From NCBI GenBank assembly GCA_022709425.1, contig JAKLIW010000001.1, forward strand, positions 17,552 to 81,551: a stretch of 64,000 bases of DNA. Reading direction: 5' to 3'. The notes beneath the pieces are model-generated. The model worked only from the letters and a program-made list of their open reading frames with translations. It did no database searches and was not told where the DNA came from. The stretch comes from a bacterium. Lineage in GTDB: Bacteria; UBP6; UBA1177; JAKLFG01. Shown piece after piece: positions 39,071-61,562 of this stretch (positions are counted from its first letter, which is position 1; each line of letters starts with the position of its first letter). The position numbers were made by a program, and so were the translations under genes.

Positions 39071-39610
39071 TTATCGCCTCTTCGGCAGACTCATGGTGGG
39101 TATCGGATCACCCGCCAACACTTCGTCCACATCGGGCAGTTCGACATCAGGCACTGCGTCGCCGGTCAGTATATCATCGTAATCAGGAACAATGACCTCG
39201 TCGGGTATCGGCGCACCACCAAGCTGTTCATCATAGTCCGACATCAGCGTATCGTCGGGTAGCGGCACATCGGGTATCGGCTCGCCACCCAACTCATCGT
39301 CGGCATCGGGCACCGCCGCATCATCAATCGGGAAATCGGGATCGGTCACCCCCTGCAGATCGGAGTAGTCGGGCTGATTCGTGTCGGGCTGATCAGTTGT
39401 ATCGACCGCGATCGAATCATCATCGGCCACCTGCACGCCGGTCGTTTCCACTTTATTCGTACAGCCGAATCCGCTGAAGAAGAAGAGGAACCCCACCACG
39501 AGGAAAAGGAACTTCAGCGGCCGCGCCTCAAGCCGCCCCGGACGGCGCCGTCCCACCGGATAACCGGGGTCGTAGCCGGTCACTTTGCGCACTTGGAAGT
39601 TCGTGTTCAT
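39071..39610 (-). CDS. membrane-anchored acidic tandem-repeat protein (DYD/PIPD repeats)
   Basis: Basic N-terminus, then a TM/lipobox-like FLFLVVGFLFFFSGFGC. After that come repeats such as LGGEPIPDVPLPDD / LGGAPIPDEVIVPDYDD / LTGDAVPDVELPDVDE / LAGDPIP. Confidence 0.5.
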   Translation of the reverse strand: MNTNFQVRKVTGYDPGYPVGRRRPGRLEARPLKFLFLVVGFLFFFSGFGCTNKVETTGVQVADDDSIAVDTTDQPDTNQPDYSDLQGVTDPDFPIDDAAVPDADDELGGEPIPDVPLPDDTLMSDYDEQLGGAPIPDEVIVPDYDDILTGDAVPDVELPDVDEVLAGDPIPTMSLPKRR

Positions 39611-39619
39611 GGCCTCACC

Positions 39620-40750
39620 TCACACAATGTCTATCGGTTCTATTTCCTTCTTATAATGCTTCCGCATGAAGACCGGGTTCTTTTCGGCGATGAGTTCGCG
39701 CGCCAGCCGGTCGGCTATCGGGATGAGCATCGATTCGTTGGCGCACAGCACACCCGGCACGGTGGTCATCTCGCCGGTCGTGTCCCAGTTGAGGCACGGG
39801 CAGTAGGTGAAGCACCGGCCGTCGAGCGAACAGCCCTGACAGTTGGTGCGCGGCTTCAGGTTCTCGGCCGCGATCTCGTGGCATTTCTTCATGATGAAGC
39901 CGGTGTCGACATGGCCCATCACGAACCCCGCCGCCCGCTCCGGCTTCCCGGCGAACCGGACGCACGGGAATATCCGGCCATCCTCGGCCACCGCGAAGAT
40001 GTTGCGCCCCACATCGCAGAAATCGCCGGGGCGGAAGCCGCCTTTGATATGCGCCGCGATATGAGCGTCGAAGAGCGAGTAGTAGAACAGATCCTTTTTG
40101 CGGGTCCGCGACCGTTCCAGATACCACTCGGCCAGTTTCTCGTACTGTTCTTTTAAGGTATAGAGCCCCGCCTCGTCCCACTTCGCGGTGTAGTCGACCA
40201 CCGGGACGAAGTTGCGGATGCCGAGGTCGTCCATGACATGGAGCGTCGAATCGTAGAGCCGATGCGCCGTCGCGGGAGAGACGACCGCCACCGCGACGAG
40301 GTGTTTCGCTTTTTTGTAGAGCGTCGGCAGGTGTTTGACGACGGCAGCGTAACTGCCGTGTCCGTCGTTGAAGGGGCGGTTCGCGTCCTGTGCCGCCGGG
40401 ACGCCATCGAGCGACAGTTCGACCGTCAGTTTCTTCTTCGCGATCCAGTCGATGATCTCGGGGGTGATGAGGGTCCCGTTGGTGGCGACATGGAGTTTGA
40501 GCGCGACGCCGAGTTTCTTCGCCTTCTTTTCGGCGTAGTCGGTCACTTCGCGCATGACATCGAACCGCAAGAACGGTTCGCCGCCGAAGAAGCTGATGCG
40601 CGCTTTCTTCTCCTCCACCGACTTCTCCAGAACGAGGTCGGCCGCCTTGAGCGCAACTTCTATAGGCATATGAGACTTCTCATGTTTCTCGACATAGCAG
40701 TAGGAGCATTTCAGGGTGCATTGGCGGGTCAGGAACAGGATCGCATGCAT
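39620..40750 (-). CDS. radical SAM / SPASM-domain peptide-modifying enzyme
   Basis: CxxxCxxC (RQCTLKCSYCYV) and a glycine-rich SAM motif (FFGGEPF). C-terminal auxiliary-cluster Cys pattern CQGCSLDGRCFTYCPCLNW...GVLCA (SPASM/twitch). Confidence 0.8.
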   Translation of the reverse strand: MHAILFLTRQCTLKCSYCYVEKHEKSHMPIEVALKAADLVLEKSVEEKKARISFFGGEPFLRFDVMREVTDYAEKKAKKLGVALKLHVATNGTLITPEIIDWIAKKKLTVELSLDGVPAAQDANRPFNDGHGSYAAVVKHLPTLYKKAKHLVAVAVVSPATAHRLYDSTLHVMDDLGIRNFVPVVDYTAKWDEAGLYTLKEQYEKLAEWYLERSRTRKKDLFYYSLFDAHIAAHIKGGFRPGDFCDVGRNIFAVAEDGRIFPCVRFAGKPERAAGFVMGHVDTGFIMKKCHEIAAENLKPRTNCQGCSLDGRCFTYCPCLNWDTTGEMTTVPGVLCANESMLIPIADRLARELIAEKNPVFMRKHYKKEIEPIDIV

Positions 40751-40817
40751 GGCTCACTCCAGCAAAGACGCCCCTTTAGTATAAGGAAAGGAAACCTTTT
40801 ATCAAAGAAATTAAACC

Positions 40818-42089
40818 CTATTCCTGTGACGGGTCTTCGACCTTGCCCATGAACAGGATGGTGCCCGAACGGTCGTCGCGAATGACGAACACGAAGGGTT
40901 TGGTAGCGTAGAAACCTTCCGGCACCGATGTTTCGCCCACCTCGACCGATGTGACCGCCGCCGCCTCGGTCCCCTGCTCGTTGACCTCGATGTAGGTCTT
41001 GTGCTTCACCTCGGAGACATAAAGCCCTTCGCCCTGATCGGCCATGTTCAGAAGGCCGCCCGGCGCGAAAAGCTGTTCCATGCCGAGCGCCTGAAGTATC
41101 TCGTTGAGCGACTTCTCGTAGGCGAACTTGAAGCGCGGCAGAAGCACCGGCACCTCTTCGGTGGCGACGAGGTTGGTGAAGAACCCGTCGAGCCCTTCGT
41201 CGGCCATCCGCCCGATGAAGTCGTCCACCGTCCCGTCGTTCGGGATGAAGCCGTAGAAGGCGAACTTGTCGCGGCCGTAGGGAAGCCGCACCGCGCTGTA
41301 GCCGCCCGCGGCGCCGTAACCGCTGGAGAAGAATTTGAACTCCTGCGCCTCTTTGAAGGTCATCATCTTGACCGTCTTCTGCGTGCCGTCGGTCAGTTCG
41401 AACTGGCCGTCGTAGGTGCGATCCTCGTCGAAGGTGACGGTCCACGCCGCCTTGAAATAGAGGGCGTTGATGAGGAACATGACGGTGTCGTCGTTGATAT
41501 CGTCGATGATCTTCTCTATCTTGCCGTTGGTGTTGTCGCTCACCCACTGATTGATGAGGTCCACGGTAGCGGTGTCGGCCATGTCGACCGTGTAGGGTTC
41601 CGCCTCGAAAGAGGCAAGGAGCGCCTCCTTGAAGGCCGTCTTGACGCGCGGTTCGAACAGGTCGTCCATCCAGATCGAGTTGGCGATGGCGAGCACCATG
41701 TCCTTGTCGGCCGATTCAAGGCTCTTGATGAGGTGGAGGAACTGCGCGTCGATCGCGGCGAGCGTCAGGTCATCGAACCCGAGCACCGTCTGCATCTCGG
41801 TCAGATTGTCGCCCGAGGCACCGTTCATCGTCATCGCGAGCGCCAGCTCTATCGACAGCGGCGATATCATGAGGTTCTTCCCCTGTTCGGCGGTCGCCAT
41901 GACCTCGAAGATGCGCGCCGCGAAGTCGTTGTTGGCGGCGACCACAGCGGGACTCACCGCCGCCGCGTGTTCGTCGGCCGCCTGATATTTCACCGTGGTC
42001 GCGGGATCTTCCTTCTGGTCATCACCACCGCAGGAAACGAAAAGGCCAAGCATTCCGAATAATACCGTGAGAACGAGAAACCGTTTCAT
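40818..42089 (-). CDS. serpin-family serine protease inhibitor, lipoprotein
   Basis: Lipobox LGLFVSCGGDDQ. Serpin hinge/RCL and C-terminal signature (...EEGTEAAAVTSVEVGETSVPEG...FVFVIRDDRSGTILFMGKVEDP). Confidence 0.75.
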   Translation of the reverse strand: MKRFLVLTVLFGMLGLFVSCGGDDQKEDPATTVKYQAADEHAAAVSPAVVAANNDFAARIFEVMATAEQGKNLMISPLSIELALAMTMNGASGDNLTEMQTVLGFDDLTLAAIDAQFLHLIKSLESADKDMVLAIANSIWMDDLFEPRVKTAFKEALLASFEAEPYTVDMADTATVDLINQWVSDNTNGKIEKIIDDINDDTVMFLINALYFKAAWTVTFDEDRTYDGQFELTDGTQKTVKMMTFKEAQEFKFFSSGYGAAGGYSAVRLPYGRDKFAFYGFIPNDGTVDDFIGRMADEGLDGFFTNLVATEEVPVLLPRFKFAYEKSLNEILQALGMEQLFAPGGLLNMADQGEGLYVSEVKHKTYIEVNEQGTEAAAVTSVEVGETSVPEGFYATKPFVFVIRDDRSGTILFMGKVEDPSQE

Positions 42090-42153
42090 AGCATCCTCCA
42101 TCGAACAGGTCCGGCCCTTTAGTATAAGGAAAGGGACTCTTTTATTGAAAAAC

Positions 42154-43686
42154 TTATTCGGCGACCCGCTTCATGAGCAGGATATCGGCAGATTCATCAT
42201 AGTAGAGCGCCTTATCGGCCTGCGGGCTGGACTGTCCGGTAAGATAGAGTTCTCCCGCCGGTCCGGCGATCACTGCGCCGGCGGTCTCGCTACCCGCATC
42301 ACCGTACAGTTTACTCCACAATTCGACCCCTTCGGCGCTCCATGCCGAAAGAAAGATATCGGCGCCGCCCGCGTTGACCAGAGCATCCCAGACTCCGTAG
42401 GTATGACCCGTCACGAATATCGTTCCCGCATCGTCGATGGTCATGCCGAAGGCCTGTTCGTTGAGCGCGCTACCCCACTGCACCATCCATATCTCACTCC
42501 CGTCAGTGGGATCGATCTTGGAAAGGAACAGGTCGCTTCCCCCCTGAGAACTGCTTCTGTCGAGAGAACCGGAGGTCCCGGCGACATAGACATAACCATT
42601 CCGCGCTACGACCGCTGCCGTGGTCATCGCGCCGCCATCCGGGGTTATCCGCGTCGTCCATTGTTCGATACCGTCGGAGCTCAGCTTGGTAACGAAGGCG
42701 TCATATATCAAATCGCCGGTATTGAGCGGCATGTGCAGATCGATGTTGCCGGCGACATACACCGAACCCGCGTCATCGACCGTCACCGCACTACCGCTAT
42801 CGGCCGCGCCGGTCCCCCATTGCCGGGTCCAGAGTTTGGTCCCCGCCGCATCCCATTTGGTCAGGAAGATATCGCTGCACGGCGGCGCTCCGTAGCCCGA
42901 ATCGCACAGATCGTCCCGCTGGAGCGTGTTGCCGTCGAGCGAACCGTGGGTGTCCCCGGTGACATAGAGTGCGCCGGCACCGTCGATCGCTATGCTGCGG
43001 CCATAGTCCTCCGCAGTCTCCACACCCCACGACCGCATCCAAAGCGACGAACCGTCGGCCGCCCATGCACCAACAAAGATGTCGGGGCAGGGATACAGGT
43101 GACGACCATAGCCGCAGGTATGCAGAGGAGGCTCCGATCCATCGAGCGGCCCGGCGGCCCAACCGGCCACATAAATGGTCCCGTTACCGCCGACCGCCAC
43201 GGCGGCGGCGTTGTCATCATTCTGCGAACCGAACTGCCGGGCCCACACCGGTGTGCCGTCGGAACGCCAATGGGCGATGACCGCGTCGCTGAGACCGACA
43301 CGCGTATTGCCGTCGAGGGTGCTCCACGTCGCACCGGCGACATAGATATCCTCTGCGCCCTTCAGCGCCAATGCGTTACCCACATCGTACGAATCGCTCC
43401 CCCAGCGCACCGTCCACGATTCATCGGAGCCGAAGCCCTCGGCATCGGGAAGTTCACCCCCCTCGCTCAGCAAATCGTCACCCTCGTTTAACAGCGCATC
43501 GCCCTCGCTCAACAACTGATCGCTTTCGCCCGGGTCATCGCCCGACAACATGCTATCGGCATCCTCCGACGCCGCATCGGTATCGACGATAGCGGCATCA
43601 CTATCGGCGGCGTTTTGGGTGGTCGAATTATCACAAGAGATCAGGCCGCAGAGCACAACTACAAAAAGCATTAGGATCTTTTGCAT
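42154..43686 (-). CDS. beta-propeller repeat lipoprotein (SBBP/delta-60-like repeats)
   Basis: Lipobox VVVLCGLISCDNS and an acidic linker. About 8 repeats of the pattern G.iYVAG.t.GsLDG...Gg.DiFl.KwdadGt.lWt.qwG.. Confidence 0.55.
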   Translation of the reverse strand: MQKILMLFVVVLCGLISCDNSTTQNAADSDAAIVDTDAASEDADSMLSGDDPGESDQLLSEGDALLNEGDDLLSEGGELPDAEGFGSDESWTVRWGSDSYDVGNALALKGAEDIYVAGATWSTLDGNTRVGLSDAVIAHWRSDGTPVWARQFGSQNDDNAAAVAVGGNGTIYVAGWAAGPLDGSEPPLHTCGYGRHLYPCPDIFVGAWAADGSSLWMRSWGVETAEDYGRSIAIDGAGALYVTGDTHGSLDGNTLQRDDLCDSGYGAPPCSDIFLTKWDAAGTKLWTRQWGTGAADSGSAVTVDDAGSVYVAGNIDLHMPLNTGDLIYDAFVTKLSSDGIEQWTTRITPDGGAMTTAAVVARNGYVYVAGTSGSLDRSSSQGGSDLFLSKIDPTDGSEIWMVQWGSALNEQAFGMTIDDAGTIFVTGHTYGVWDALVNAGGADIFLSAWSAEGVELWSKLYGDAGSETAGAVIAGPAGELYLTGQSSPQADKALYYDESADILLMKRVAE

Positions 43687-43765
43687 GGCAGACTCCCCCA
43701 ACAGACAACAACAACTCATCGTAGCGGTATAGACCTTTTCGGTAGAGAAAAGGTTCTTTCTGAGG

Positions 43766-43830
43766 GTGAAAAAAACGGGGGGTCTTGCGACCCCCCGGAA
43801 CCTTCCGGTCCCTTGTCAAAGGGACCTTGA
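43766..43830 (-). terminator. tandem hairpins plus U-tract terminator downstream of gdhA
   Basis: On the minus strand: GGTCCCTTTGACAAGGGACC ... CGGGGGGTCGCAAGACCCCCCG TTTTTTTCACCC. Two GC hairpins, the second followed by a T7 tract. Confidence 0.55.
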
Positions 43831-43841
43831 CGGGATTTTAA

Positions 43842-45188
43842 TTACACGAGACCCTGATCGATCATCGCGTTGGCGACCTTCTTGAAGCCGGCGATGTTCG
43901 CGCCGACGACATAGTTGCCCTCAAAGCCGTATTCCTTCCCCGCATTGACGCAGGCGGCGTGGATGTTGATCATGATCTGGTGGAGTTTCTGGTCGACCTC
44001 TTCGCGGGTCCAGCCCAGACGCATCGAGTTCTGAGACATCTCAAGGCCGCTGGTCGCGACACCGCCGGCGTTGGAAGCCTTGCCGGGGGCGAAAAGTATC
44101 TTCTTCTCGGTGAAGAGTTTGACCGCCTCGAGCGTGGAGGACATATTGGAACCTTCGACCACGACCTTACAGCCGTTCTTTATGAGGGTCGCGGCATTCT
44201 TGTCGTCCAGTTCGTTCTGGATGGCGCACGGAAGAGCCACATCGACCGCCACTTCCCACGGCCGTTTCCCGGCGTGGAATTCGGCGCCTTTGAACTTCTT
44301 CGCGTAGTCCTCGACCTTGTCGCGGCCGCTGGCGCGCATCTCGAGCATATACTCTATCTTCTCGCCGCTCACGCCGTCCTTATCGTAGATATAGCCGTCG
44401 GGACCGGAGATGGTCACGACCTTGGCGCCCAGATCGTTCGCCTTGATGGCGGCGCCCCACGCGACATTGCCGAAGCCCGATATCGCGACCTTCTTGCCCT
44501 TCAGGCTGTCGCCCTTGGATTTATAGATCTCTTCCGCGAAGTAGACCACGCCGAAGCCGGTCGCTTCGGGACGAACGAGCGAGCCGCCCCAGTTGAGCCC
44601 CTTGCCGGTCAGCACGCCGGTGAACTCGTTGGCGAGCCGTTTGTACTGGCCGAACATATAGCCGACCTCGCGGCCGCCCACGCCGATATCGCCCGCCGGG
44701 ACATCGGTGTCGGGACCGATGTGGCGGAACAGTTCGGTCATGAACGACTGGCAGAAACGCATCACTTCACCGTCGGACTTGCCGTTCGGGTTGAAGTCGG
44801 AGCCGCCCTTGCCGCCGCCCATGGGGAGGCCGGTGAGGGAGTTCTTGAATATCTGTTCGAAACCGAGGAACTTGAGGGTGGAAAGGGTCACATTGGGGTG
44901 GAAGCGGATGCCGCCTTTGTAGGGGCCGATGGCGCTGTTGAACTGTACGCGATAGGCGCGGTTGACCTGAAACTCGCCCTTGTCGTCGATCCACGGGACG
45001 CGGAACATGATGGTGCGTTCCGGCTCCACGATGCGCTCAAGGATCTTGTGGGCTTTGTACTTCGGTTCGCGCTCGACGATCGGGGTAAGCGAATCGAGCA
45101 CCTCTTCAGCGGCCTGCAGGAACTCCTTCTCCCAGTGATACCGGGTCTTGAGGTCGTTGAGGACCGCGCTCACATAACTGTTCATCAT
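43842..45188 (-). CDS. gdhA: NADP-specific glutamate dehydrogenase
   Basis: GLPMGGGKGGSDFNPNGKSD (Lys active-site glycine-rich motif) and Rossmann GFGNVAWGAA. Probable start MMNSYVSAVLNDL with GGAGGA upstream. Confidence 0.85.
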   Translation of the reverse strand: MMNSYVSAVLNDLKTRYHWEKEFLQAAEEVLDSLTPIVEREPKYKAHKILERIVEPERTIMFRVPWIDDKGEFQVNRAYRVQFNSAIGPYKGGIRFHPNVTLSTLKFLGFEQIFKNSLTGLPMGGGKGGSDFNPNGKSDGEVMRFCQSFMTELFRHIGPDTDVPAGDIGVGGREVGYMFGQYKRLANEFTGVLTGKGLNWGGSLVRPEATGFGVVYFAEEIYKSKGDSLKGKKVAISGFGNVAWGAAIKANDLGAKVVTISGPDGYIYDKDGVSGEKIEYMLEMRASGRDKVEDYAKKFKGAEFHAGKRPWEVAVDVALPCAIQNELDDKNAATLIKNGCKVVVEGSNMSSTLEAVKLFTEKKILFAPGKASNAGGVATSGLEMSQNSMRLGWTREEVDQKLHQIMINIHAACVNAGKEYGFEGNYVVGANIAGFKKVANAMIDQGLV

Positions 45189-45399
45189 ATCCTCCAGAAA
45201 AAAAACAATTAAACATCCGCACACGCGGAAGCCGCTTCCACTTAACCCTCTTTTATATATATTGTCAAGCAAAATTTTAGGAAACTGTTAGTAAGTTTTT
45301 CCTTTGTGATTTCAATGGGTGTTGAAAAAATCGCGGTTTTTTTTGCTTGTTTCACAAAATACCTCAATAAATAGACGGAGAACGGTTCACTAAAGGAGC

Positions 45400-46011
45400 A
45401 TGAAGGCTGTGGCGCAGATCACACACCCGGTTCTTGGAGAAATGAAGGATGAGGCCCTGCTTGACTTGGCTCTGAACAAGAACCAAGGGGCATGGCGGGA
45501 GCTGGTACGGCGCTACCACGGCAAGGTGAGCGCGACGGTGTACCGGATCTACGGATCGAAACCGGAGGCGGAGGATATCGTGCAGGAGATTTTCATCGAA
45601 CTCGCTAAATCGGCGAAGAATTTCCGGCGCGACGCCTCTTTCTCGACCTTCCTGTACCGCATATCGGTCAATACCGCATACCGCTACATTAAGCGGCACA
45701 AGGACCCGAGCATCATTTCCCAACCGATAGAATTTTTCGCCAACCTCGCCTCCGGGCAGGAAAAAGAGAAAGAGGAGTCGCCCGCGGCGGCGCTTATGGC
45801 GACCGAAAGTCATGAACAGGTGCATGAGGCGCTCGGCAAGATATCGGCCGAGAAACGGATGGCGCTGGTGATGTTCGAGATCGAGGGATTGACCCTCAAA
45901 GAGATAGCGGAACTCCTGAAGGTACCGTTGCAGACGGTGTGGTCACGCGTCTACAACGGCCGGAAGGATATGGCACGATTACTAACTAAAGCATACGGCA
46001 CGGCGTCATGA
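45400..46011 (+). CDS. ECF-type RNA polymerase sigma factor (sigma-70 region 2/4)
   Basis: Region 2 (VQEIFIELAKSAKNFRRDASFSTFLYRISVNTAYR) and region 4 HTH (LTLKEIAELLKVPLQTVWSRVYNGRKDM). Confidence 0.8.
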   Translation: MKAVAQITHPVLGEMKDEALLDLALNKNQGAWRELVRRYHGKVSATVYRIYGSKPEAEDIVQEIFIELAKSAKNFRRDASFSTFLYRISVNTAYRYIKRHKDPSIISQPIEFFANLASGQEKEKEESPAAALMATESHEQVHEALGKISAEKRMALVMFEIEGLTLKEIAELLKVPLQTVWSRVYNGRKDMARLLTKAYGTAS

Positions 46012-47165
46012 ACGAAAAACATCTTTCCATCGCGGAGCTTACCGCTCTGACCGAACGGGGCGCGGAACTCACCCCGGAGATGGCGGAACATCTCGACCGG
46101 TGCGCCGAATGCGCCGATCTGCTGGAACGGCATCTCGCCGCCGAACCGCTATTGACCCTCGCGGCGGCCGACGACGCGGCGATAGACCGTATCGCGGCGC
46201 GGAGCTTCGGCTACCTTGCGGATGAGAAGCCCGGCTTCTTCGCGGCGCTCTTCACCCTGCCCCGCATCGCGCTCGGCGCGGCGGCGGCGCTCGTGATCGT
46301 CGCGGCCTACTTCGGGTTCGCCACCAGTACCACCACCGACGAGTCGAAGTTCGTCGATAACGATCCGGCCCCCAAGACCGCCCCGGCGCTCGACGCCACT
46401 CCGCGCGCTTTCGCCGACGGCGTCGCGATAGCCCACGGCCGCGCCGCCCTAACGGTCAAGGGAACCGCCACGCTTGCCGCCGACGGCGCCGAAACGCTGC
46501 GTCTCGCGAAAGGCACCGTCGAGGTATCCATAGAGAAAGGGAATGATTTCATCATCCATACCGCCGACCGCTATATGGTCCGCGTGCTCGGCACCCGCTT
46601 CACGCTCGACACCGACGGCGTGAAACTCACCGTGACGGTCACCGAAGGGCTGGTCGAGGTGATCGACGGCCGCTCCAACGACTCGGTCGCTCTCTCCGGC
46701 GGCATGTCGCGCACCTTCGCCGACGAACCGAAGGCGGTTGTAGCGATCCCGAAGGAACACCGCGCGATCAAGGCGACGGTTCCGGAACCGGTCGCCGTCG
46801 AGCCCGCCTCGTTCCTGAAAATGGGCCGCGGCGCGCTCAAGGCCAACGATGCGACCACGGCGATGGGCTGGTTCGAAAAGGAACTCGCCGAGGGCGCCGA
46901 GAAAGACAAGGCGCTCTTCGAGATCGTGCGGCTCCATGAGAAGGAGGGCCGTTTCGGCGACATCCTCGCGGTGCTCAAAGCGCACGGCGAGATCGTGGAC
47001 GGCGGTTCGGTATTTCGCGAAGAACTGCTCATCAAAGGGTGCAAGGCCGAGGTGAAGCAGAGCATCGGAACCCTTCCTTCGTGCAGAAAATACTTGCAGG
47101 TTTTCCCCGCCGGATATAAAAAGGACGAGATCCGCGACCTTCTGGAGAATGGTGATGCGCGCTGA
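46008..47165 (+). CDS. anti-sigma factor (zinc-finger N-terminus, single TM, periplasmic FecR domain + TPR-like tail)
   Basis: Start overlaps the sigma-factor stop (ATGA). HLDRCAECADL zinc-finger-like N-terminus, TM LPRIALGAAAALVIVAAYFGF, and FecR-like VRVLGTRFTLDTDGVKLTVTVTEGLVEVID. Confidence 0.65.
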   Translation: MNEKHLSIAELTALTERGAELTPEMAEHLDRCAECADLLERHLAAEPLLTLAAADDAAIDRIAARSFGYLADEKPGFFAALFTLPRIALGAAAALVIVAAYFGFATSTTTDESKFVDNDPAPKTAPALDATPRAFADGVAIAHGRAALTVKGTATLAADGAETLRLAKGTVEVSIEKGNDFIIHTADRYMVRVLGTRFTLDTDGVKLTVTVTEGLVEVIDGRSNDSVALSGGMSRTFADEPKAVVAIPKEHRAIKATVPEPVAVEPASFLKMGRGALKANDATTAMGWFEKELAEGAEKDKALFEIVRLHEKEGRFGDILAVLKAHGEIVDGGSVFREELLIKGCKAEVKQSIGTLPSCRKYLQVFPAGYKKDEIRDLLENGDAR

Positions 47166-47883
47166 CATCGCGATCATAGCGGCGCTTCTAGCGCTTTTAC
47201 TTGTCGCCTCGTGCGAACAGGTCATCGAACTCGACAAGAGTCTTTCCGGCGCAGAGGGAAGCAGCACCGATGATCAGAAAGACACCGCCGACGGCACCGG
47301 CGGCAACCCCGCCGAAGATATCGCCGAAGGGCCCGACTCTCCGGGCAACGGCGCCTATAACGACTCGGCGGCCAGCGCCGACACCGCCGCACCAGCGACC
47401 GATGACTACAACAATCAGGACGGCGCCGATGACGAGATGGCCGCCGACAACGCCACGATGCCCGACACCGCAGTTTCCGACGACGCCGAAGTAAGCGACG
47501 ACGACCCGACCTCGTCGTTCTCGGCCGCCGACTGTGCCTGCGGCGATGATCCGCTCTACGAACCGGTCTGCTGCGACGGCGTGACGACCGTTTTCAACAC
47601 CTGCTTCGCCAATTGCCTTAACTACCATACCGGACAGTGCGCCTCACAGCAGAACGGGACCTGCGCCACGCAAGGAGGCGAGAACGACGCCGACACCGAT
47701 ACGGCATCCTCCCCCGACGACGATGCCGTTGTCGAAACGCCCGACGACGATTCCATAACGGTCGGCGGCTGCGGCTGTGTGCCGACCGATATGAACGCGT
47801 GGTGCTGTGACGGCGGAACGCGCTATATCAGCGAGTGTACGGCGACCTGTGAATGCGAAGGGGCCGCCGCCCCCTGCGACTGA
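47149..47883 (+). CDS. secreted lipoprotein with two Kazal-like protease-inhibitor domains and an acidic linker
   Basis: Lipobox LLLVASCEQ. YEPVCCDGVTTVFNTCFANC and AWCCDGGTRYISECTATCEC fit the Kazal P-V-C-x-x-D-G-x-T-Y-x-N-x-C-x-x-x-C pattern. The internal motif GGCGCVP resembles the C-terminal tag found elsewhere in the window. Confidence 0.5.
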   Translation: MVMRADIAIIAALLALLLVASCEQVIELDKSLSGAEGSSTDDQKDTADGTGGNPAEDIAEGPDSPGNGAYNDSAASADTAAPATDDYNNQDGADDEMAADNATMPDTAVSDDAEVSDDDPTSSFSAADCACGDDPLYEPVCCDGVTTVFNTCFANCLNYHTGQCASQQNGTCATQGGENDADTDTASSPDDDAVVETPDDDSITVGGCGCVPTDMNAWCCDGGTRYISECTATCECEGAAAPCD

Positions 47884-47898
47884 TATCCGGGAGGATCT

Positions 47899-48379
47899 CA
47901 TGACGAAAGGTTTTTACAAACTCATGTGCTTCGCGACGGCCGCCGCGATGTCGATCATCGGTTGCGGCCCCGAGAACGATCCTCCGCTCGAGTACGGCCC
48001 CGGTCCGACCGATTACGATCAGTACCAGACCGACAACGACGAATACACCGACGCCACCAAATACGGTATCGCCGACACCGATTTCGCACCGGCCGACGCC
48101 GACGAACCGATCATCTCCGACGACCCAGCCATGGAATACGGCCCGGTACAGACCGACTACGATAATTTCCCCAGCGACTTCGACACCCTTTACGGCCCCC
48201 CCGACACCGATTACGCCGACGCCGACGAACCGATCATCTCCGACGACCCAGCCATGGAATACGGTCCGGTGCAGACCGACTATGACGAACTGGCGACCGA
48301 CGCCGACGCGATCATCGAACAGCCCGACGAAATGACCACCGACTACGGCCCGATATCGCGGCCCTTCGTCAAGAAATGA
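47899..48379 (+). CDS. acidic tandem-repeat lipoprotein (EYGPxxTDYD repeats)
   Basis: Lipobox MSIIGCGPEN. Repeats ...EYGPGPTDYDQYQTDNDEYTDA... plus two near-identical 123-nt units (48092-48214 / 48215-48337) encoding ADADEPIISDDPAMEYGPVQTDYD. The stop overlaps the next gene's start. Confidence 0.55.
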
Positions 48380-49464
48380 GCATCAAGCGCGTCGCCAAGC
48401 GGGCGCTGCTCCCCTTAAAACAGCACTACGAGCGGAAACTCCATGAATTGCGCTACATCTTCTTTGAGTTGACCCACCGCTGCAATATCGCCTGCATCCA
48501 CTGCGGTAGCGACTGCCAGAAGAACGACACCCTGCCCGACCTCCCCGCCGACAAGATACTCGAGACGCTCGACGGCATCAAGACGAAGTACGATTCCCAC
48601 AAGGTGATGATCGTCCTCTCGGGCGGCGAACCGACGATATATCCCGGCGTCTGGGACCTCGGCAAGGAGATCATCAAGCGCGAATTCCCGTGGGGGATGG
48701 TCACCAACGGCTACGCGTGGGACACCGAGATGATCAAGAAGGCCAAAGAGGCGCGGATGCATTCGGTCACCGTATCGCTCGACGGCCTTGAAGAGACCCA
48801 CAACTGGCTGCGCGGCGACAAAAAATCGTTCCGCAAAGCGGTGAACGCCATAGAACTGCTCCTCAAGAACCCCTTCTACCGCGTGATGGATGTCATCACC
48901 TGCGTCAACAAGCGCAACATCGGCGAACTCGATAAGATATACGACCTCGTGAAATCGATGGGGCTCAAACGGTGGCGCTTCTTCACCATCTCCCCCATTG
49001 GCCGCGCGGTGCAGACCCCGGATCTGTTCCTCGGCAAAGAGGATTTTCATTATCTCATGCAGAAGATAATCGCCTACCGCAAAAAGCCGGGGATGAAGGT
49101 CACCTACTCCGAATCGGGCTATCTCGGCTGTTACGAACACCGCGTCCGCGGCCACGACTGGTTCTGCCGCGCCGGGGTCAATGTCGCGGGGATCATGGTC
49201 AACGGCGATATACTCGCCTGCCCCAATATCGACCGCCGCTTCAAGCAGGGCAATGTCTTCGAACAGCCATTCATCGATGTCTGGGAGCACGGCTACAAGG
49301 AATTCCGCGACCGCAAATGGATGCGGACCGGCGACTGCGTGAAGTGTCCCGAATGGCGGCTGTGTCAGGGAAATCCGATGCACCTGTGGGACCTCGACAC
49401 CAACCGAACGAAGCTCTGCCATCTGAAGCAGTTCGAACTCGACCGGCCGATCGTCGGCACATGA
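48376..49464 (+). CDS. radical SAM / SPASM-domain peptide-modifying enzyme (second copy, different subfamily)
   Basis: CxxxCxxC (HRCNIACIHCGSDC), SAM glycine motif (LSGGEPT), and C-terminal SPASM Cys cluster (CRAGVNVAGIMVNGDILACPNI...GDCVKCPEWRLCQGNPMH). Confidence 0.8.
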   Translation: MSIKRVAKRALLPLKQHYERKLHELRYIFFELTHRCNIACIHCGSDCQKNDTLPDLPADKILETLDGIKTKYDSHKVMIVLSGGEPTIYPGVWDLGKEIIKREFPWGMVTNGYAWDTEMIKKAKEARMHSVTVSLDGLEETHNWLRGDKKSFRKAVNAIELLLKNPFYRVMDVITCVNKRNIGELDKIYDLVKSMGLKRWRFFTISPIGRAVQTPDLFLGKEDFHYLMQKIIAYRKKPGMKVTYSESGYLGCYEHRVRGHDWFCRAGVNVAGIMVNGDILACPNIDRRFKQGNVFEQPFIDVWEHGYKEFRDRKWMRTGDCVKCPEWRLCQGNPMHLWDLDTNRTKLCHLKQFELDRPIVGT

Positions 49465-49543
49465 CAAAAAACTGAAAAAAATCTGGTTTTTTTTGTCCGA
49501 AAAGGCATTATGCGTCGATTGTTTTTTTGAGCACCGTCGCCCT

Positions 49544-49618
49544 ATGAAGAATCGCCTGCTCGCGCTGGTCAAACGGACCGTCACCAGCAACGGCTGCGGC
49601 TGTTCGGTGTTGTTCTAG
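49544..49618 (+). CDS. 24-aa peptide MKNRLLALVKRTVTSNGCGCSVLF (candidate RiPP precursor / tag-only ORF)
   Basis: ATG 80 nt downstream of the SPASM gene stop. Ends in the same GCGCS-hydrophobic-F C-terminus as the 310-aa and 968-aa proteins. The first 12 codons and the upstream leader are duplicated at 53258-53374. Confidence 0.4.
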   Translation: MKNRLLALVKRTVTSNGCGCSVLF

Positions 49619-49702
49619 GGCGCAATTCTCTTCGGAAAATCACCTCCGTCTTGACATCATATCGTCCGTTGGTACAATGGGCCGGAACCGGGAGAGGGAC
49701 CG

Positions 49703-50014
49703 ATGAAACTCGCCGACATCTTGGACGCCATTGCCAAAGAACATTACCGGGTCACCGAACACGCCGATGACGAGGCGCAGAACGACCGGCTTTTGTACGA
49801 GGACATCTTCGAGTCGGTCCTGCACGGCGAGATCATCGAGGAATACCCGAAAGACAAGCCCTGTCCGAGCATCCTCATAGCGGGAAAGAACTACCGCGAA
49901 GAGCCGATACATTCGGTGTGGGGATACAACGAAGAGAACGGGTACGCGATACTCATAACGGTGTATCGTCCCGATCCGAAGCGGTGGATAGAGAACAAGA
50001 AGCGGAGGAAATAG
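49703..50014 (+). CDS. DUF4258-family toxin-like protein
   Basis: 103 aa with ...HADDEA...EEYPKDKPCPSILIAGKNYREEPIHSVWGYNEENGYAILITVYRPDPKRW, matching the DUF4258 consensus (HVV...VITVY.PD..W). Followed 2 nt later by a YgiT zinc-finger gene. Confidence 0.6.
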   Translation: MKLADILDAIAKEHYRVTEHADDEAQNDRLLYEDIFESVLHGEIIEEYPKDKPCPSILIAGKNYREEPIHSVWGYNEENGYAILITVYRPDPKRWIENKKRRK

Positions 50015-50016
50015 CC

Positions 50017-50259
50017 ATGCTTCCTTTCAAAAAATGTCCGACCTGCGGCGGCGCCGTGGTGAAGAAAGAGGTCGAGAAGATCGTCAAGGGCGGTAACGAC
50101 ACCGCCGTGCTCAAGGTGGTCGCCGAGGTCTGCGAGAAATGCGGTGAGCGACTTTACACACCGGCGCAGGTGAAACGGTTCGAAGCGTTCCGCAAGATGC
50201 TGTTCCAGAAAAAGCCGGTCGGGCTTAAAGCGGTCGGCCGCTCCTATGTCACGGCATAA
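50017..50259 (+). CDS. YgiT-type zinc-finger protein (MqsA-family antitoxin-like)
   Basis: MLPFKKCPTCGGAVVKK...VVAEVCEKCGERLYTP: a CxxC...CxxC zinc ribbon typical of the YgiT/MqsA N-terminal domain. 80 aa. Confidence 0.6.
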   Translation: MLPFKKCPTCGGAVVKKEVEKIVKGGNDTAVLKVVAEVCEKCGERLYTPAQVKRFEAFRKMLFQKKPVGLKAVGRSYVTA

Positions 50260-50324
50260 TCGACTTCATCTTTCAATTTGACAATCTTTCCGATTTCTGA
50301 TTAAATCCAGCAGAATATCTTTCA

Positions 50325-53231
50325 TTGAACCGGGGGCGGGCCGTGCGGAACATACTTCTTGCGATGATCGGGCTGATGCTTGTCGCGTGCGGCGGCGAGA
50401 TGCCGTCGGCCGACGGGCCAGCCACCGCCAACCTCACCCCGCCCGAATTCGCATGGGAAGAAGAAGCGCCGGTAGGTGGTTTCGACAGTCCATCCGCCCG
50501 CTACGCCGTTCCCGGCGATGAGCGGTGGGTGTCGATGAATCCGGAAATACCGGGGACGGATGGTACGATATACGCTATGGCGCGGCATGGCGATTATCTC
50601 TACATCGGTGGCTCTTTTACTATCGTGAAGGATATTGTGGCGAACCGGATAGCACGACTCACGATCTCAACCGGTCAGTGGAGCGCACTCGGAAGCGGGA
50701 TGGATGGTACTGTATATTCTCTTGTGGTGGATGGCACGGGCAATCTCTATGCCGGCGGGTACTTTGCCACTGCGGACGGAATAATAGTGAACCGCGTCGC
50801 GAAATGGGATGGCACAGCATGGAGCGCGCTGGGGACCGGGATGGATAGCGCGGTGTATGCCCTTGCGGTGGATGGCGATGGTACCCTCTATGCCGGTGGT
50901 GATTTCACGACGGCGGGCGGGGTGTCGGCGAACCGTATTGCAAAATGGAATGGCACCCAGTGGGGTACCATCAATAATGGGATGAATGGTGGTGTTTATT
51001 CTCTAGTATTGGATGGGAATGGTAATCTCTATGTTGGAGGATACTTCACCACGGCGGATGGTGTGGCGACAAATCGCATCGCAAAATGGGACGGTGCTGC
51101 ATGGAGCGCACTCGGGAGCGGTATGAGCGACTCCGTCCGCGCCCTTGCGATAGATGGCGAGGGCACCCTTTACGCTGGCGGAAAATTCAAGACGGCGGGA
51201 GGGGTGTCGGCCAATAGGATCGCGAAATGGGACGGCACCTTATGGAGCGCACTCGGGATCGGGATAACCGATATTGGTGTTGACCCGTGTGTGTATACCA
51301 TTACGGTGGCCGGTGACGGGACCCTCTATGCTGGCGGTGATTTCACGACGGCAGATGGAATGACGGCGAAATATATCGCGAAATGGGATGGTACGATTTG
51401 GAGTGCAGTTGATAGTGGGATGAATGACCATGTCAAAATCCTTGTGATTGCCGGTGATGGCACCCTCTACGCCGCCGGCTCTTTCACGACGGCAGGTGGA
51501 GTGACAGCGAATCGTATAGCTCAGTGGGATGGCTCTTCTTGGTTTTCTCCTGGGTATGGTGTGAGCAACCCTGTCCATGCTCTTACATTTGATGATGTGA
51601 GCAACCTCTTTCTTGGCGGATACTTTACCCACGCGGGTGGGGTGGCCGCGAACCGCATCGCCAAGTGGGACGGCGCGACTTGGAGTCCTCTTGGGGGGGG
51701 AATGGATAAATTTGTCGAATCTCTTGCGTTAGATGCAGGTGGCAATCTCTACGCTGGAGGGAAGTTTGACACCGCAGGTGGGGTGTTGGTAAATCGTATC
51801 GCGAAATGGGACGGTGCCGAATGGATAGCCCTCGATAGTGGGATGACGGGAGAAGACCCGGGAGTCTTTGCCCTCGCGTTAGATGATACGGATAATCTTT
51901 ACGCCGGAGGAGGATTTATCACTGCGGGCGGGGTGGCGGCGAAACACATTGCAAAATGGGACGGCACGGTGTGGAGCAACCTCGGGAACGGGATGGATGC
52001 TTATGTTTATGCCCTTGTAATGGATGATGCGGGAAATCTTTACGCCGGAGGAAGCTTCACCACTGCGGGCGGAGTGGCGGCGAAATACATCGCGAAATGG
52101 GACGGGACCTCGTGGAGTGCCCTTGGAAGCGGGATGGATAAGTATGTCAATACCCTTGTATTCGATGATGCTGGGAATCTCTATGCCGGCGGAGGTTTTA
52201 CCACCGCAGGCGGGGTGACGGCGAACCGCATTGCCAAATGGGATGGAGTCGAATGGAGCGCATTGGGAACAGGGGTAAATAACTATGTCCGCATATTGAC
52301 AGTTGATGGAACAGGCAATCTCTACGCCGGAGGAGGTTTCACTATAGCGGGCGGTGTAACGGCAAATTACATTGCAAAGTGGAATGGTATCGCATGGAGT
52401 GCCCTCGGTGGTGGGATGAATAATAGTGTTGAAAGCCTTGCGATTGACGGGAATGGTGATCTATATGCCTGTGGATTCTTTACGACGGCTGGCAACAAAT
52501 TAAGTCCTTATATCGCCAAGTACATACTCTCCGACGAAGACCCCGTCACTCCCGACGATGATGTCCTCCTCTCCGAAAGCGATGCTGTCACCTCTGACGA
52601 TGACGCTCTCCTCGCCGAAAGCGAATCTCTGTTGACGGAGGACGACACGGTCATCATCATAACTGACACCGTGATCGAGCCCGACGATGCGGTCATTCTC
52701 CCCGACGAGGACTCTGTGATCGAACCCGATGACGAAGATGCTTACCCCGAGGTTTACCACCCCGACACTTTCTACGAGATCGACCCGGTCGACGAAATAT
52801 CAGTGCCCGATGAAGTAGTGGACGACATCCAGCCGGACGAACCCGTCGCCGATGATGTGGTCGACGAGACGGTCGATGCCACGCCGGACGATTACTACGA
52901 GATAGACGCTGTTGACGAGATATCGGTCCCCGACGACACCGTTGACGATACCCCCGATGAAGACACGACGGTCAGCGCCGACACGAACGATGCCGCAACG
53001 GACGAAGATACTGCGCAACCGGATGAAACAACGGACCAAACGAGCGACACTGCCACCGACACCTTCCAACCTGACGAAACGGTTGATGAATCCGTTGATG
53101 CGACGACCGACGAAAGCATCGACGGCACCATCGATGACGATTCTCCGCTCACGACTCACGATTCACTGATCACCGACACCGACACCACCAAGCCTACCGG
53201 CAACGGCTGTGGATGTTCCCTCGCCTTCTAG
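50325..53231 (+). CDS. large beta-propeller repeat lipoprotein (968 aa) with acidic C-terminal repeats ending in the GCGCSLAF tag
   Basis: Lipobox LMLVACGGEM. About 17 repeats of LYAGG.FTTAGGV.ANRIAKWDGT.WSALGSGM (delta-60/SBBP-like). C-terminal acidic YEIDxVDEISVPD repeats, then ...DTDTTKPTGNGCGCSLAF followed by the stop codon. Confidence 0.65.
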   Translation: MNRGRAVRNILLAMIGLMLVACGGEMPSADGPATANLTPPEFAWEEEAPVGGFDSPSARYAVPGDERWVSMNPEIPGTDGTIYAMARHGDYLYIGGSFTIVKDIVANRIARLTISTGQWSALGSGMDGTVYSLVVDGTGNLYAGGYFATADGIIVNRVAKWDGTAWSALGTGMDSAVYALAVDGDGTLYAGGDFTTAGGVSANRIAKWNGTQWGTINNGMNGGVYSLVLDGNGNLYVGGYFTTADGVATNRIAKWDGAAWSALGSGMSDSVRALAIDGEGTLYAGGKFKTAGGVSANRIAKWDGTLWSALGIGITDIGVDPCVYTITVAGDGTLYAGGDFTTADGMTAKYIAKWDGTIWSAVDSGMNDHVKILVIAGDGTLYAAGSFTTAGGVTANRIAQWDGSSWFSPGYGVSNPVHALTFDDVSNLFLGGYFTHAGGVAANRIAKWDGATWSPLGGGMDKFVESLALDAGGNLYAGGKFDTAGGVLVNRIAKWDGAEWIALDSGMTGEDPGVFALALDDTDNLYAGGGFITAGGVAAKHIAKWDGTVWSNLGNGMDAYVYALVMDDAGNLYAGGSFTTAGGVAAKYIAKWDGTSWSALGSGMDKYVNTLVFDDAGNLYAGGGFTTAGGVTANRIAKWDGVEWSALGTGVNNYVRILTVDGTGNLYAGGGFTIAGGVTANYIAKWNGIAWSALGGGMNNSVESLAIDGNGDLYACGFFTTAGNKLSPYIAKYILSDEDPVTPDDDVLLSESDAVTSDDDALLAESESLLTEDDTVIIITDTVIEPDDAVILPDEDSVIEPDDEDAYPEVYHPDTFYEIDPVDEISVPDEVVDDIQPDEPVADDVVDETVDATPDDYYEIDAVDEISVPDDTVDDTPDEDTTVSADTNDAATDEDTAQPDETTDQTSDTATDTFQPDETVDESVDATTDESIDGTIDDDSPLTTHDSLITDTDTTKPTGNGCGCSLAF

Positions 53232-53257: not shown

Positions 53258-53374
53258 ATGACGAAAACTGAAAAAAATCTGGATTTTTTTGTCCGAAAAG
53301 GCATTATGCGTCGATTGTTTTTTTGAGCACCGTCGTCCTATGAAGAATCGCCTGCTCGCGCTGGTCAAACGGAC
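53258..53374 (+). repeat. 117-118-nt direct repeat (second copy; first copy 49461-49578): shared leader + start + first 12 codons (MKNRLLALVKRT)
   Basis: ATGAC(A/G)AAAACTGAAAAAAATCTGG(A)TTTTTTTGTCCGAAAAGGCATTATGCGTCGATTGTTTTTTTGAGCACCGTCG(C/T)CCTATGAAGAATCGCCTGCTCGCGCTGGTCAAACGGAC. About 98% identical. The copies diverge immediately after GGAC. Confidence 0.7.
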
Positions 53375-55223: not shown

Positions 55224-56323
55224 TGCCCAAGGAACTGAAGCCGAAAAAAGGTGCGGCCAACTGGAAAGCGCTTTTCTTCATCGCCTTCGGCGCCCTGATC
55301 GCGGTGTCGGCGCTGTCGCTCTTCTGCCGCCCCGGCGCTTCCGATTCTCCCTCCACAACCCCGCAGATCGCCCCTGAGCCGCCAACCGCCGGACCAGCCT
55401 CCGCGCCATCTATAGCGGCCCCGCAACCGATCCCGGCCACCCCGCAGACCGCCACGCCGCCGACGCCCGAGAAGAAGAACGACACCTACGCGCTGACGGT
55501 GAAGATATCGGCTTCGTTCTACAACACCTTCGCCGACGATCCCGAGATAGCGCGCATCGCCGCCGAAACGGGGAAAAAGCGGCTTGCCGAACTGCTGTCG
55601 GCCCATGTGTCGCGCAACCTCATCTGGAGCCTCGACATGCGCCGCGAGGTCTATCCGGGCGACGAGATGAAACTGCTCTTCCGCGTCATATCGCCCGAAG
55701 AACAGGCCAAACGGGCCGACACGCCCGACGAGATCGAACTGCTCGCGATGCAGTACCGGTCGATACGGCTCGGCAAGGAGATCCGTTTCTATCAGTTCAA
55801 GTCATCCGACCGGAAATTCCCCGCCTTCTACCACGCCGACGGCACGGCGGTCGAAAAGACGCTTAAAAAATCACCGCTGAAAGAGTGGATACAGATCACC
55901 TCACTCCTCAAGGATCGCCGCCCGCGCCACGACGGACTCGATTTCAAGGCGCCGGTCGGCACGCCGATATACGCCCCATGGAGCGGCACGGTCGAAAAGA
56001 CCAACTGGAAGACCCGCTACAACGGCTATTCGCTCCTCGCGCGGGTCGACAGCCAGCCGGCGGTGCAGATGCTCCTGCTCCATCTCGACAAGGTCCACCT
56101 GAAGCCGGGGCAACGCTTCGCGGCGGGCGACCATATCGCCGACGTGGGCAATACCGGCCGCTCGTTCGCCCCTCACCTGCACTATCAGTTGCAGCACGAG
56201 GCGAAAAAGATCATCGACCCGATCAAATTCCACGGCACCGTGGCCGCAAAACTTCCGGCGGCCGACGCCGATGCCTTCCAGAAGGTCGTTCAGCGTTTCG
56301 ACGCACTGATGGGAAACAAATAA
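55220..56323 (+). CDS. M23-family metallopeptidase (LytM-like) with N-terminal TM and Pro/Ala-rich linker
   Basis: HDGLDFKAPVGTPIYAPWSGTV ... GNTGRSFAPHLHYQL (HxxxD and HxH Zn motifs of M23). Start overlaps the upstream gene's stop (ATGA). Confidence 0.75.
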   Translation: MMPKELKPKKGAANWKALFFIAFGALIAVSALSLFCRPGASDSPSTTPQIAPEPPTAGPASAPSIAAPQPIPATPQTATPPTPEKKNDTYALTVKISASFYNTFADDPEIARIAAETGKKRLAELLSAHVSRNLIWSLDMRREVYPGDEMKLLFRVISPEEQAKRADTPDEIELLAMQYRSIRLGKEIRFYQFKSSDRKFPAFYHADGTAVEKTLKKSPLKEWIQITSLLKDRRPRHDGLDFKAPVGTPIYAPWSGTVEKTNWKTRYNGYSLLARVDSQPAVQMLLLHLDKVHLKPGQRFAAGDHIADVGNTGRSFAPHLHYQLQHEAKKIIDPIKFHGTVAAKLPAADADAFQKVVQRFDALMGNK

Positions 56324-61456: not shown

Positions 61457-61562
61457 CGTCGGGATACCGTACCGGATTCACTTTTCTTGTCAATGTTATA
61501 TCGCCCCTTGCAAAACGAACAAGGGTGTGGTAAGAAGCCCCCGTCGTTCTTTAACATCAACG

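Follow-up and report, generated by a model that had tools for sequence, protein, structure and literature searches.

Two radical SAM/SPASM enzymes encoded beside lipoproteins as their probable substrates in a contig of a UBP6 bacterium

The stretch analysed here, in the following called the window, comprises 64,000 nucleotides (nt) of a bacterial contig (JAKLIW010000001.1; GTDB lineage UBP6) and encodes two enzymes of the radical S-adenosylmethionine (rSAM)/SPASM type, rSAM-A in locus A and rSAM-B in locus B. Each enzyme gene adjoins a gene for an acidic lipoprotein, partner A and partner B, respectively. On balance, these genes probably form two independent, non-homologous two-gene cassettes, each of which provides a cytoplasmic rSAM/SPASM enzyme together with an exported lipoprotein as its probable substrate. 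That an rSAM/SPASM enzyme matures an adjacent secreted repeat protein or lipoprotein had been put forward in the initial annotation of the region, and this core idea is supported by the conserved adjacency of the two genes and by tandem partner copies in both families. All open reading frames (ORFs) listed there exist at or near the coordinates assigned to them, and the acidic gene indeed abuts the SPASM gene in both loci, with a 9-nt gap in locus A and a 4-nt overlap in locus B. For the present analysis, part of the ORFs of the window were compared with Pfam and NCBIfam models. Furthermore, 16 window proteins were searched by phmmer against the ORFs of two sets of loci, one of 88 (L001-L088) and one of 80 (L089-L168), complemented by 12 gene-context look-ups.

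The rSAM-B cassette and a curated enzyme/lipoprotein family

The rSAM-B protein (362 amino acids (aa); 48376-49464, plus strand) contains the Pfam Radical_SAM and SPASM domains and matches the NCBIfam model TIGR04133 ('rSAM_w_lipo') with 391.5 bits (E = 3e-117) over positions 13-349 of 350, while the next-best family reaches 121 bits. Within the family alignment (A1) the cysteines C36, C40 and C43 of the CxxxCxxC motif are invariant, as are C264, C282, C321, C324, C330 and C348. Among solved structures, SkfB and PqqE are nearest to rSAM-B. After TIGR04133, the characterised families that score best in the hidden Markov model (HMM) comparison are those of a nif11-class maturase, of MftC and of heme b synthase; Tyr is the residue on which MftC, like PqqE, acts. 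At E <= 1e-20, 1416 homologues were found, many of which carry the JGI name 'radical SAM enzyme (rSAM/lipoprotein system)', and a Bacteroidota homologue (L041) scores 601 with TIGR04133. Among the GTDB species genomes, with one genome per species, at least 581 rSAM-B loci are present, mostly in Bacteroidales and additionally in records labelled Krumholzibacteria, Treponema and Ignavibacteriaceae.

Partner B (159 aa; 47900-48379, plus strand) is encoded directly upstream and overlaps the start of rSAM-B by 4 nt. The protein begins with a lipoprotein signal peptide, MTKGFYKLMCFATAAAMSIIGC, which ends in IIGC, and continues with an acidic repeat region containing six motifs of the [E/K/D]YG type (EYGPGP, KYGIAD, EYGPVQ, LYGPPD, EYGPVQ and DYGPIS) and a basic C-terminus. 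By phmmer it is homologous to the partners in L001, L003, L004, L009 and L010. More generally, an ORF with a signal peptide, a Cys and a YG.P motif lies directly upstream of the enzyme gene on the same strand in 71 of the 83 rSAM-B loci that could be evaluated with a strict motif test, and most of the 12 misses are variants of the motif. As a rule, this upstream lipoprotein gene and the enzyme gene share 4 nt, and two or three tandem lipoproteins beside a single rSAM-B homologue are common. What these lipoproteins have in common is the presence of at least one [E/K]-Y-G-x-P motif just past the lipobox Cys.

The curated lipoprotein family that accompanies TIGR04133 is TIGR04134, which recognises the Bacteroidota partners with 84-118 bits and the partner in L003, a locus whose enzyme is 67% identical to rSAM-B, with 69.2 bits, and which gives no match to the partners in L001 and L002. 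The L003 partner takes an intermediate position, as its acidic YG repeats precede a TIGR04134 domain. Since the window partner consists of the repeats without the globular domain, what is conserved in the partner-B family is the Tyr-Gly motif that follows the lipobox, and not the acidity. In line with the lipoprotein-first gene order, the frequent 4-nt overlap and the shared combination of signal peptide, Cys and YG.P, cassette B belongs, as a divergent member, to TIGR04133/TIGR04134, an rSAM/lipoprotein system that is curated but uncharacterised. No paper characterising this pair was found in the literature searched; an apparent match for TIGR04134 was discarded because it denotes a type IX secretion C-terminal domain, i.e. 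another family. In the databases the cassette is described as a 'hypothetical equivalog', and it occurs in several cultured Bacteroidota, e.g. Mariniphaga anaerophila DSM 26910, Persicobacter diffluens NBRC 15940 and Draconibacterium sediminis, which brings it within reach of experiments.

The rSAM-A cassette and its tailed partner proteins

The rSAM-A protein (376 aa; 39620-40750, minus strand) is recognised by the Pfam Radical_SAM model and not by the Pfam SPASM model. Nevertheless, its family alignment (A2) shows an invariant CxxxCxxC motif starting at residue 11 and eight conserved cysteines in the SPASM region. The best NCBIfam match is PapB (NF047865) with 228.2 bits, below the cutoff of 340; for four distant relatives PapB is likewise the best model (207-226 bits) and stays under the same cutoff, so that no NCBIfam model accepts any of the five proteins. 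Positions 3-340 of the rSAM-A family profile align to residues 99-444 of CteB (E = 1e-63). As the alignment is confined to this part of CteB, rSAM-A lacks the N-terminal, PqqD-like recognition element (RRE) of that enzyme. The AlphaFold2 model of rSAM-A (mean predicted local distance difference test score, pLDDT, of 92) superposes in Foldseek on CteB, anSME and ChlB, with template modelling (TM) scores of 0.79, 0.77 and 0.75, respectively.

Close relatives of rSAM-A are scarce. Only about 13 with more than 50% identity were found among 5.8 billion protein clusters, and an exhaustive HMMER search returned two 50%-identity clusters above that identity and about 480 clusters at E <= 1e-30. In a metagenome scan, relatives among the matches listed reached at most 38% identity, which helped to define the wider partner family and not the close clade. 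The family is rarer than that of cassette B and has no curated model; no paper characterising the cassette A pair was found in the literature searched.

Partner A (179 aa; 39071-39610, minus strand), whose start lies 9 nt past the rSAM-A stop codon, has an unusual layout. A 33-aa N-terminal tail with the motif VRKVTGYDPGYP precedes a hydrophobic segment that ends in a lipobox-like Cys, followed by an ectodomain of acidic 'L-x-G-x-P-I-P-D' repeats and a basic C-terminus. The lipobox-like Cys is the only cysteine of the 179 residues and the only one conserved across the partners. Proteins of this type share the consensus P-[VIL]-x-x-Y-x-x-P-x-[YF]-P about 12-20 residues from Met1, then 15-35 residues, a hydrophobic segment that usually ends in a lipobox-like Cys, and a variable ectodomain; the gene adjoins the enzyme gene either upstream or downstream. 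By eye, such a protein was found beside rSAM-A relatives in 27 loci, in which the enzymes share 32-97% identity with rSAM-A and which include L005/6, L008, L089, L090, L094-L104, L108, L114, L116, L149 and L169-L175. A crude automated test for the partner was positive in 21 of 27 evaluable loci, compared to 0.5% of background ORFs. Tandem paralogues beside a single enzyme occur as well, with three in L171 and five in L174. The acidic 'L-x-G-x-P-x-P-D' repeats are limited to the clade of the window, while acidic ectodomains are present in L171 and L173, too. Other partners mostly have an ectodomain of up to ~280 aa with 'F-x-x-W-L-x-x-Q-G' at its end. No Pfam or NCBIfam family includes any of these partner proteins.

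Three known systems resemble cassette A in part. CteB and PapB, the enzymes of ranthipeptide and SCIFF maturation, are closest to rSAM-A by sequence and structure and share the full SPASM region with two sets of auxiliary-cluster cysteines. However, rSAM-A has no N-terminal RRE and scores below every curated cutoff, and partner A is a membrane-anchored protein of 179 aa with a single conserved Cys instead of a short Cys-rich peptide. The anSME enzymes are SPASM enzymes without RRE and of the same size and fold as rSAM-A. They modify a short linear motif within a full-length, signal-peptide-bearing sulfatase before export. Compared to these, rSAM-A reaches only 86.6 bits with TIGR03942 (cutoff 349), and the partners are not sulfatases; a reading of the partner A sequence reveals no C/S-x-P/A-x-R motif. 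ChlB and the other three-residue cyclophane synthases (triceptide maturases) are likewise RRE-less, about 375 aa long and, according to the title of PDB entry 9GM3, bind the precursor leader directly, whereas the cyclophane families score 62-78 bits with rSAM-A, lower than CteB/PapB, and the substrates here would be lipoproteins, not short peptides. Taken together, cassette A appears to act like an RRE-less peptide or protein maturase that stands outside every curated family, differing from the known ones in score, in the RRE and in the type of substrate.

Independently of this comparison, proteins with an FGE-sulfatase domain (PF03781; FGE, formylglycine-generating enzyme) adjoin the rSAM-A cassette in two lineages (8985-9929 in L005; 9718-13713, minus strand, in L008). 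The structural relative anSME is the anaerobic counterpart of FGE, and the adjacency may be a coincidence.

Lipoproteins as candidate substrates and a possible mode of action

If the lipoproteins were not substrates, they could instead be membrane tethers, regulators or escorts of enzymes with a different target, e.g. a lipid, a further protein or a small molecule. Some SPASM enzymes do use non-peptide substrates, and AhbD (heme b synthase) and NirJ are found among the secondary matches of rSAM-B. Moreover, the partners are protein-sized and variable except for one short motif, and one enzyme of the rSAM-A family has no partner in its vicinity. However, two to five tandem partner paralogues per enzyme are typical of substrates and not of stoichiometric subunits, and what is conserved in them is a short linear motif of the kind recognised by peptide-modifying rSAM enzymes. 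In cassette B, export of the partner would leave only the signal peptide on the enzyme side of the membrane, which makes a stable complex unlikely. Furthermore, CteB, PapB, QhpD and anSME, the nearest relatives of rSAM-A, all modify polypeptides. We thus regard a non-substrate role of the lipoproteins as unlikely.

The pairing of enzyme and substrate draws on conserved adjacency and tandem-copy behaviour, and a number of observations speak against two enzyme-substrate cassettes. The enzyme that lacks a partner, encoded in L007, is a 73% identical relative of rSAM-A. The score of rSAM-B remains below the curated TIGR04133 cutoff of 425 bits, and partner B, which is devoid of the ~100-aa globular domain of TIGR04134, shows no match to that model at E <= 10 (cutoff 39.8 bits). 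Other genes also keep company with the enzymes: genes or gene relics encoding a C-terminal GCGCS tail lie directly 3' of rSAM-B in the window, L001 and L003/L004, and serpin genes are located within ~3 kb of distant (33-35% identical) rSAM-A relatives in L106 (3504-4775) and L149 (1-457, minus strand). Finally, the residue and the chemistry proposed below are guesses. As for the scores of cassette B, it fails the strict HMM cutoffs while having the architecture of the curated system.

Radical SAM enzymes are cytoplasmic and oxygen-sensitive. As the partners are exported, a modification before export is the simplest model. Each enzyme would thereby bind, in the cytoplasm, a short linear Tyr motif of its pre-lipoprotein while this is still nascent or unfolded, and the radical modification would precede Sec export and lipidation, following a logic similar to that of anSME. 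The adjacency, the tandem partner arrays, the motifs, the enzyme fold and the missing RRE are observations, whereas the substrate relationship, its timing relative to export and the target residue are inferred from them. In cassette B the target would be the [E/K]-Y-G-x-P motif, which follows the lipobox in the mature part of the protein. In cassette A, the cytoplasmic tail upstream of the signal peptide could serve as a built-in leader for the RRE-less enzyme, as in ChlB, and would later be discarded together with the signal peptide.

In both cassettes the invariant Tyr (Tyr or Phe in cassette A) would be the most likely modified or cross-linked residue. Cyclophane synthases act on aromatic residues (PMC12912966), and the invariant residue of the partner motif is aromatic here, too. 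A Tyr-centred modification or cross-link is our best guess for the chemistry, although one that we expect to be wrong rather more readily than right. A thioether at the single conserved Cys seems unlikely, because the lipobox thiol is needed for lipidation. We also considered a thioether between the lipobox Cys and Asp/Glu in analogy to the C-x3-D/E pattern of PapB; acidic residues often follow the Cys, but their spacing is inconsistent and the cross-link would block lipidation, and this candidate was rejected.

Going further, rSAM-A and its partners might constitute an undescribed class of rSAM-modified lipoproteins, in which the N-terminal tail acts as leader, a Tyr cross-link is perhaps installed, and signal peptidase II would cleave off the leader along with the signal peptide. 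A second, convergent solution would then be represented by the TIGR04133/TIGR04134 pair, whose Tyr motif lies past the lipobox in the mature protein. We put this forward as a tentative and rather doubtful proposal.

To our knowledge, almost all of the SPASM maturases characterised so far process short precursor peptides that are not exported, mostly via an RRE, with anSME as the main exception. Both cassettes described here point to protein-sized lipoproteins as SPASM substrates, and if the tail of cassette A works as a leader, this would represent a new coupling of radical SAM modification to lipoprotein export.

Neighbouring genes of the two cassettes

The initial annotation had described the two loci as parallel modules of four parts each. 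It had assigned the enzymes to different subfamilies, and with 21% identity (E = 0.001) between rSAM-A and rSAM-B this holds. The remaining parts differ as well, since partner A and partner B show no detectable homology (E = 0.79), and the SBBP-repeat beta-propeller lipoprotein of locus A (42154-43686, minus strand; Pfam SBBP, NCBIfam LipL53-like) and the 968-aa beta-propeller lipoprotein of locus B (50325-53231, plus strand; Pfam Rax2, DUF5122 and Reg_prop repeats) are built from repeats of different families and show no meaningful homology (E = 0.001). The 'parallel' parts of loci A and B are analogous at best.

According to the four-part model, each locus would encode an envelope system composed of an rSAM maturase, a repeat protein, a guarding serpin or Kazal inhibitor and a beta-propeller protein. 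All four gene types are indeed present in both loci of the window. The serpin of locus A is a lipoprotein (40818-42101, minus strand) with a full-length match to Pfam PF00079 above the gathering score (328.4 bits, 8e-98, profile positions 2-370 of 370). Its counterpart in locus B would be a Cys-rich lipoprotein with two Kazal-like modules (47149-47883, plus strand). In the 96% identical relative L001, genes for a Kazal-like protein, an SBBP protein, the lipoprotein, rSAM-B and the propeller are clustered; the SBBP gene found there in locus B is a different one. No serpin was found by phmmer in any of the 84 rSAM-B loci, and homologues of the Kazal-like, SBBP and propeller proteins occur among these only in L001, which also has the only propeller orthologue. 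The locus L009, with a 94% identical rSAM-B, has additional YG lipoproteins as well as another type of toxin gene beside the enzyme and lacks the sigma factor/FecR, Kazal-like, propeller, SBBP and serpin genes; L010 has none of the serpin, Kazal-like, SBBP and propeller genes. In the metagenome-assembled genome JAKLFG01 (L006, L010), rSAM-B lies next to secA on a different contig from rSAM-A.

A similar picture emerges for rSAM-A. In L005/L006 (97% identity) the gene order is GDH, serpin, FGE-sulfatase-domain gene, rSAM-A and partner, without an SBBP gene, and only here and in the window is a serpin directly near rSAM-A. Around the relatives with 36-73% identity (L007, L008, L169-L175) there is neither a serpin nor a propeller nearby. 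The serpins near the distant enzymes in L106 and L149, two unrelated metagenome contigs of which the latter has its serpin at the contig edge, are more than would be expected for such a rare gene and may reflect a loose accessory link, i.e. a weak enrichment. The recurrence of the four gene types is hence no more than a local coincidence, as the additional genes reappear solely in near-identical relatives and are missing from some of these, and the dedicated protease inhibitor and the beta-propeller postulated for the system fall away. Gene-neighbourhood conservation, which had been suggested as a check, bears out the linkage to a lipoprotein partner and not the linkage to inhibitor or propeller. 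We consider the four-part system very unlikely. Instead of components, the serpin, the SBBP protein, the Kazal-like protein, the propeller, the toxin-antitoxin pair and the 24-aa ORF described below are changeable neighbours, and the two cassettes, located 8 kb apart, are part of a variable island of envelope-lipoprotein genes. The acidic repeats, too, look like a general trait of exported proteins in the source organism: the SBBP protein, the Kazal-like protein, the propeller and a 310-aa protein of the window contain acidic low-complexity linkers as well, and acidic composition is absent from most partner homologues in other lineages. For annotation this calls for caution, as lineage-wide traits such as acidic linkers, abundant propeller lipoproteins and GCGC tails are not evidence of a multi-gene system.

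A shared regulatory element was also counted in favour of the four-part model. Paralogous copies of a 45-nt promoter-like element lie upstream of rSAM-A (40769-40813) and of the serpin gene (42112-42156) on the minus strand, consisting of TTGATA, 16 nt and TATACT with AAAGG/CCTTT inverted repeats. A 20-mer of this element occurs exactly twice (zero expected), and similar elements precede both genes in L005. This suggests that rSAM-A and the serpin gene may be transcribed separately but regulated similarly. A promoter/terminator scan also placed a promoter-like site before rSAM-A; the scan yields no more sites than expected from shuffled sequence and says little about operon structure.

The Kazal-like lipoprotein gene overlaps by 17 nt with the gene for a FecR-type anti-sigma factor (46008-47165, plus strand), which follows a gene for a sigma factor of the extracytoplasmic function (ECF) type (45400-46011, plus strand); both regulators were assigned from phmmer matches and the Pfam families of their orthologues in L001 and L005. 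In L005 the sigma factor, FecR, Kazal-like and M23 peptidase genes are contiguous without the rSAM-B cassette, which resides elsewhere in that genome. As these genes stay together there without rSAM-B, the Kazal-like gene belongs with the sigma factor/FecR unit. Its designation as a double-Kazal protein stands only as far as the cysteine pattern is concerned. The Cys framework CACGDDPLYEPVCCDGVTTVFNTCFANC resembles that of non-classical Kazal domains (C-x-C ... PVC-x-x-DG-x-T-Y-x-N-x-C ... C), yet the protein matches no Pfam family, and no Pfam or NCBIfam Kazal model, even at E <= 10. Weak matches were obtained to the Kazal-like loop of SLCO2A1 in the PDB (E about 1) and, as the only NCBIfam match, to the same region of the OATP family (E = 1.8). 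BLASTP against a hand-entered sequence of LDTI gave E = 5e-4, and hhalign against eight Kazal sequences, seven of them entered by hand, a probability of 79%. A search for homologues with the C-terminal region found none, and the single-sequence AlphaFold2 model of the Kazal-like region (pLDDT 46) is unusable. The protein is therefore best called 'Kazal-like', an unproven assignment that is not statistically established.

Downstream of rSAM-B the window bears the marks of a rearrangement. A direct repeat of 111 nt (98% identical; 49468-49578 and 53264-53374, plus strand, spacing 3796 nt) brackets a toxin-antitoxin pair and the propeller gene. The repeat spans the upstream region and the first 12 codons of a gene for a membrane sulfatase/LTA-synthase-like protein (53340-55223, plus strand; Pfam Sulfatase 1.7e-39, NCBIfam LtaS-like, weak), 3' of which an M23 peptidase is encoded (55220-56323, plus strand). 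The 5' end of the sulfatase-like gene is the source, and the copy at 49468-49578 its duplicate. The DUF4258 toxin (49703-50014, plus strand; 75.8 bits) and the YgiT/MqsA-type zinc-finger antitoxin (50017-50259, plus strand; YgiT finger at 39.5 bits) are encoded 2 nt apart in the architecture of a type II toxin-antitoxin system and have a strong promoter-like site of their own at 49651-49678. In L001 the propeller gene, with an unchanged promoter-like sequence, comes immediately after rSAM-B, and repeat, 24-aa ORF and toxin-antitoxin pair are missing. Because of this direct succession, the ~810 nt at 49465-50275 are an insertion scar that carries the toxin-antitoxin cassette. The 24-aa peptide noted in the initial annotation, MKNRLLALVKRTVTSNGCGCSVLF (49544-49618, plus strand), does exist as an ORF. 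It is a chimera of the rearrangement, in which the first 12 codons of the sulfatase-like gene run into a 12-codon fragment of a GCGCS tail. As a precursor peptide it was rejected, being a duplication chimera that is absent in L001 and has no export signal.

The tail from which this fragment derives, G-C-G-C-S-[LV]-x-F-COOH, follows an acidic linker in a 310-aa DUF11-like protein and in the 968-aa propeller, which is built of 141-nt repeat units and ends in an acidic C-terminal linker and GCGCSLAF-COOH. Tail sequences lie at 35955-35978 (minus strand), 49595-49618 and 53208-53231 (both plus strand) in the window, at 9873-9899 in L001 and at 6684-6707 in L003. One could imagine that rSAM-B, or rSAM-A, modifies these Cys-containing tails of its neighbours and that the 24-aa ORF is a real precursor or a decoy. 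The position of tailed genes or relics directly 3' of rSAM-B, a GCSCSVIF-tailed protein adjoining the rSAM-A cassette in L172 (2624-2650, minus strand) and the thioethers which the closest relatives of rSAM-A form at Cys would fit this idea. However, no such tails were found in the other ~160 loci (1.65 Mb scanned), in which lipoprotein partners are near-universal. The relics 3' of rSAM-B are untranslatable in L003/L004, the L003 fragment having no start codon, and chimeric in the window, and the 310-aa tagged protein at 35955 adjoins neither enzyme. Together with the origin of the 24-aa ORF, this makes the tails highly improbable as targets. The tail may rather be an undescribed, minimal sorting or lipidation tag of a CAAX-like kind. 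As in MYXO-CTERM, GCGC is placed near the C-terminus of surface proteins after a low-complexity linker. MYXO-CTERM is defined as a tripartite signal of a Cys signature, a transmembrane helix and an Arg-rich cluster (10.1101/2023.06.07.544157), whereas the tails of the window end four residues after GCGC (SLAF, SLVF, SVLF) and have neither helix nor Arg cluster. In agreement with this, the tailed window proteins show no match to TIGR03901 (MYXO-CTERM) at E <= 10. No CPBP/Rce1-like protease turned up among the ~30 window proteins scanned, the window not having been annotated exhaustively.

Some further features were recorded along the way. A Cys-rich protein of 97 aa (MYxCxNC...DIRGKxGRQDxCPHC...HCCMNCRF) is encoded beside rSAM-B in L009 (5490-5783) and L010 (1530-1823) and beside rSAM-A in L007 (9163-9456), with secA adjacent in L007 and L010. 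The window itself contains a complete bacterial rRNA operon (16S, two tRNAs, 23S and 5S; 14119-19126, minus strand) and three molybdenum/tungsten cofactor (Moco) riboswitch aptamers within 5 kb (58760-58879, minus strand; 61551-61672 and 63344-63464, plus strand). Large tetratricopeptide-repeat proteins, several with signal peptides, are encoded in a run on the minus strand (257-13007 and 27760-31335), among them a lipoprotein of 1191 aa which also has a transglutaminase-like core.

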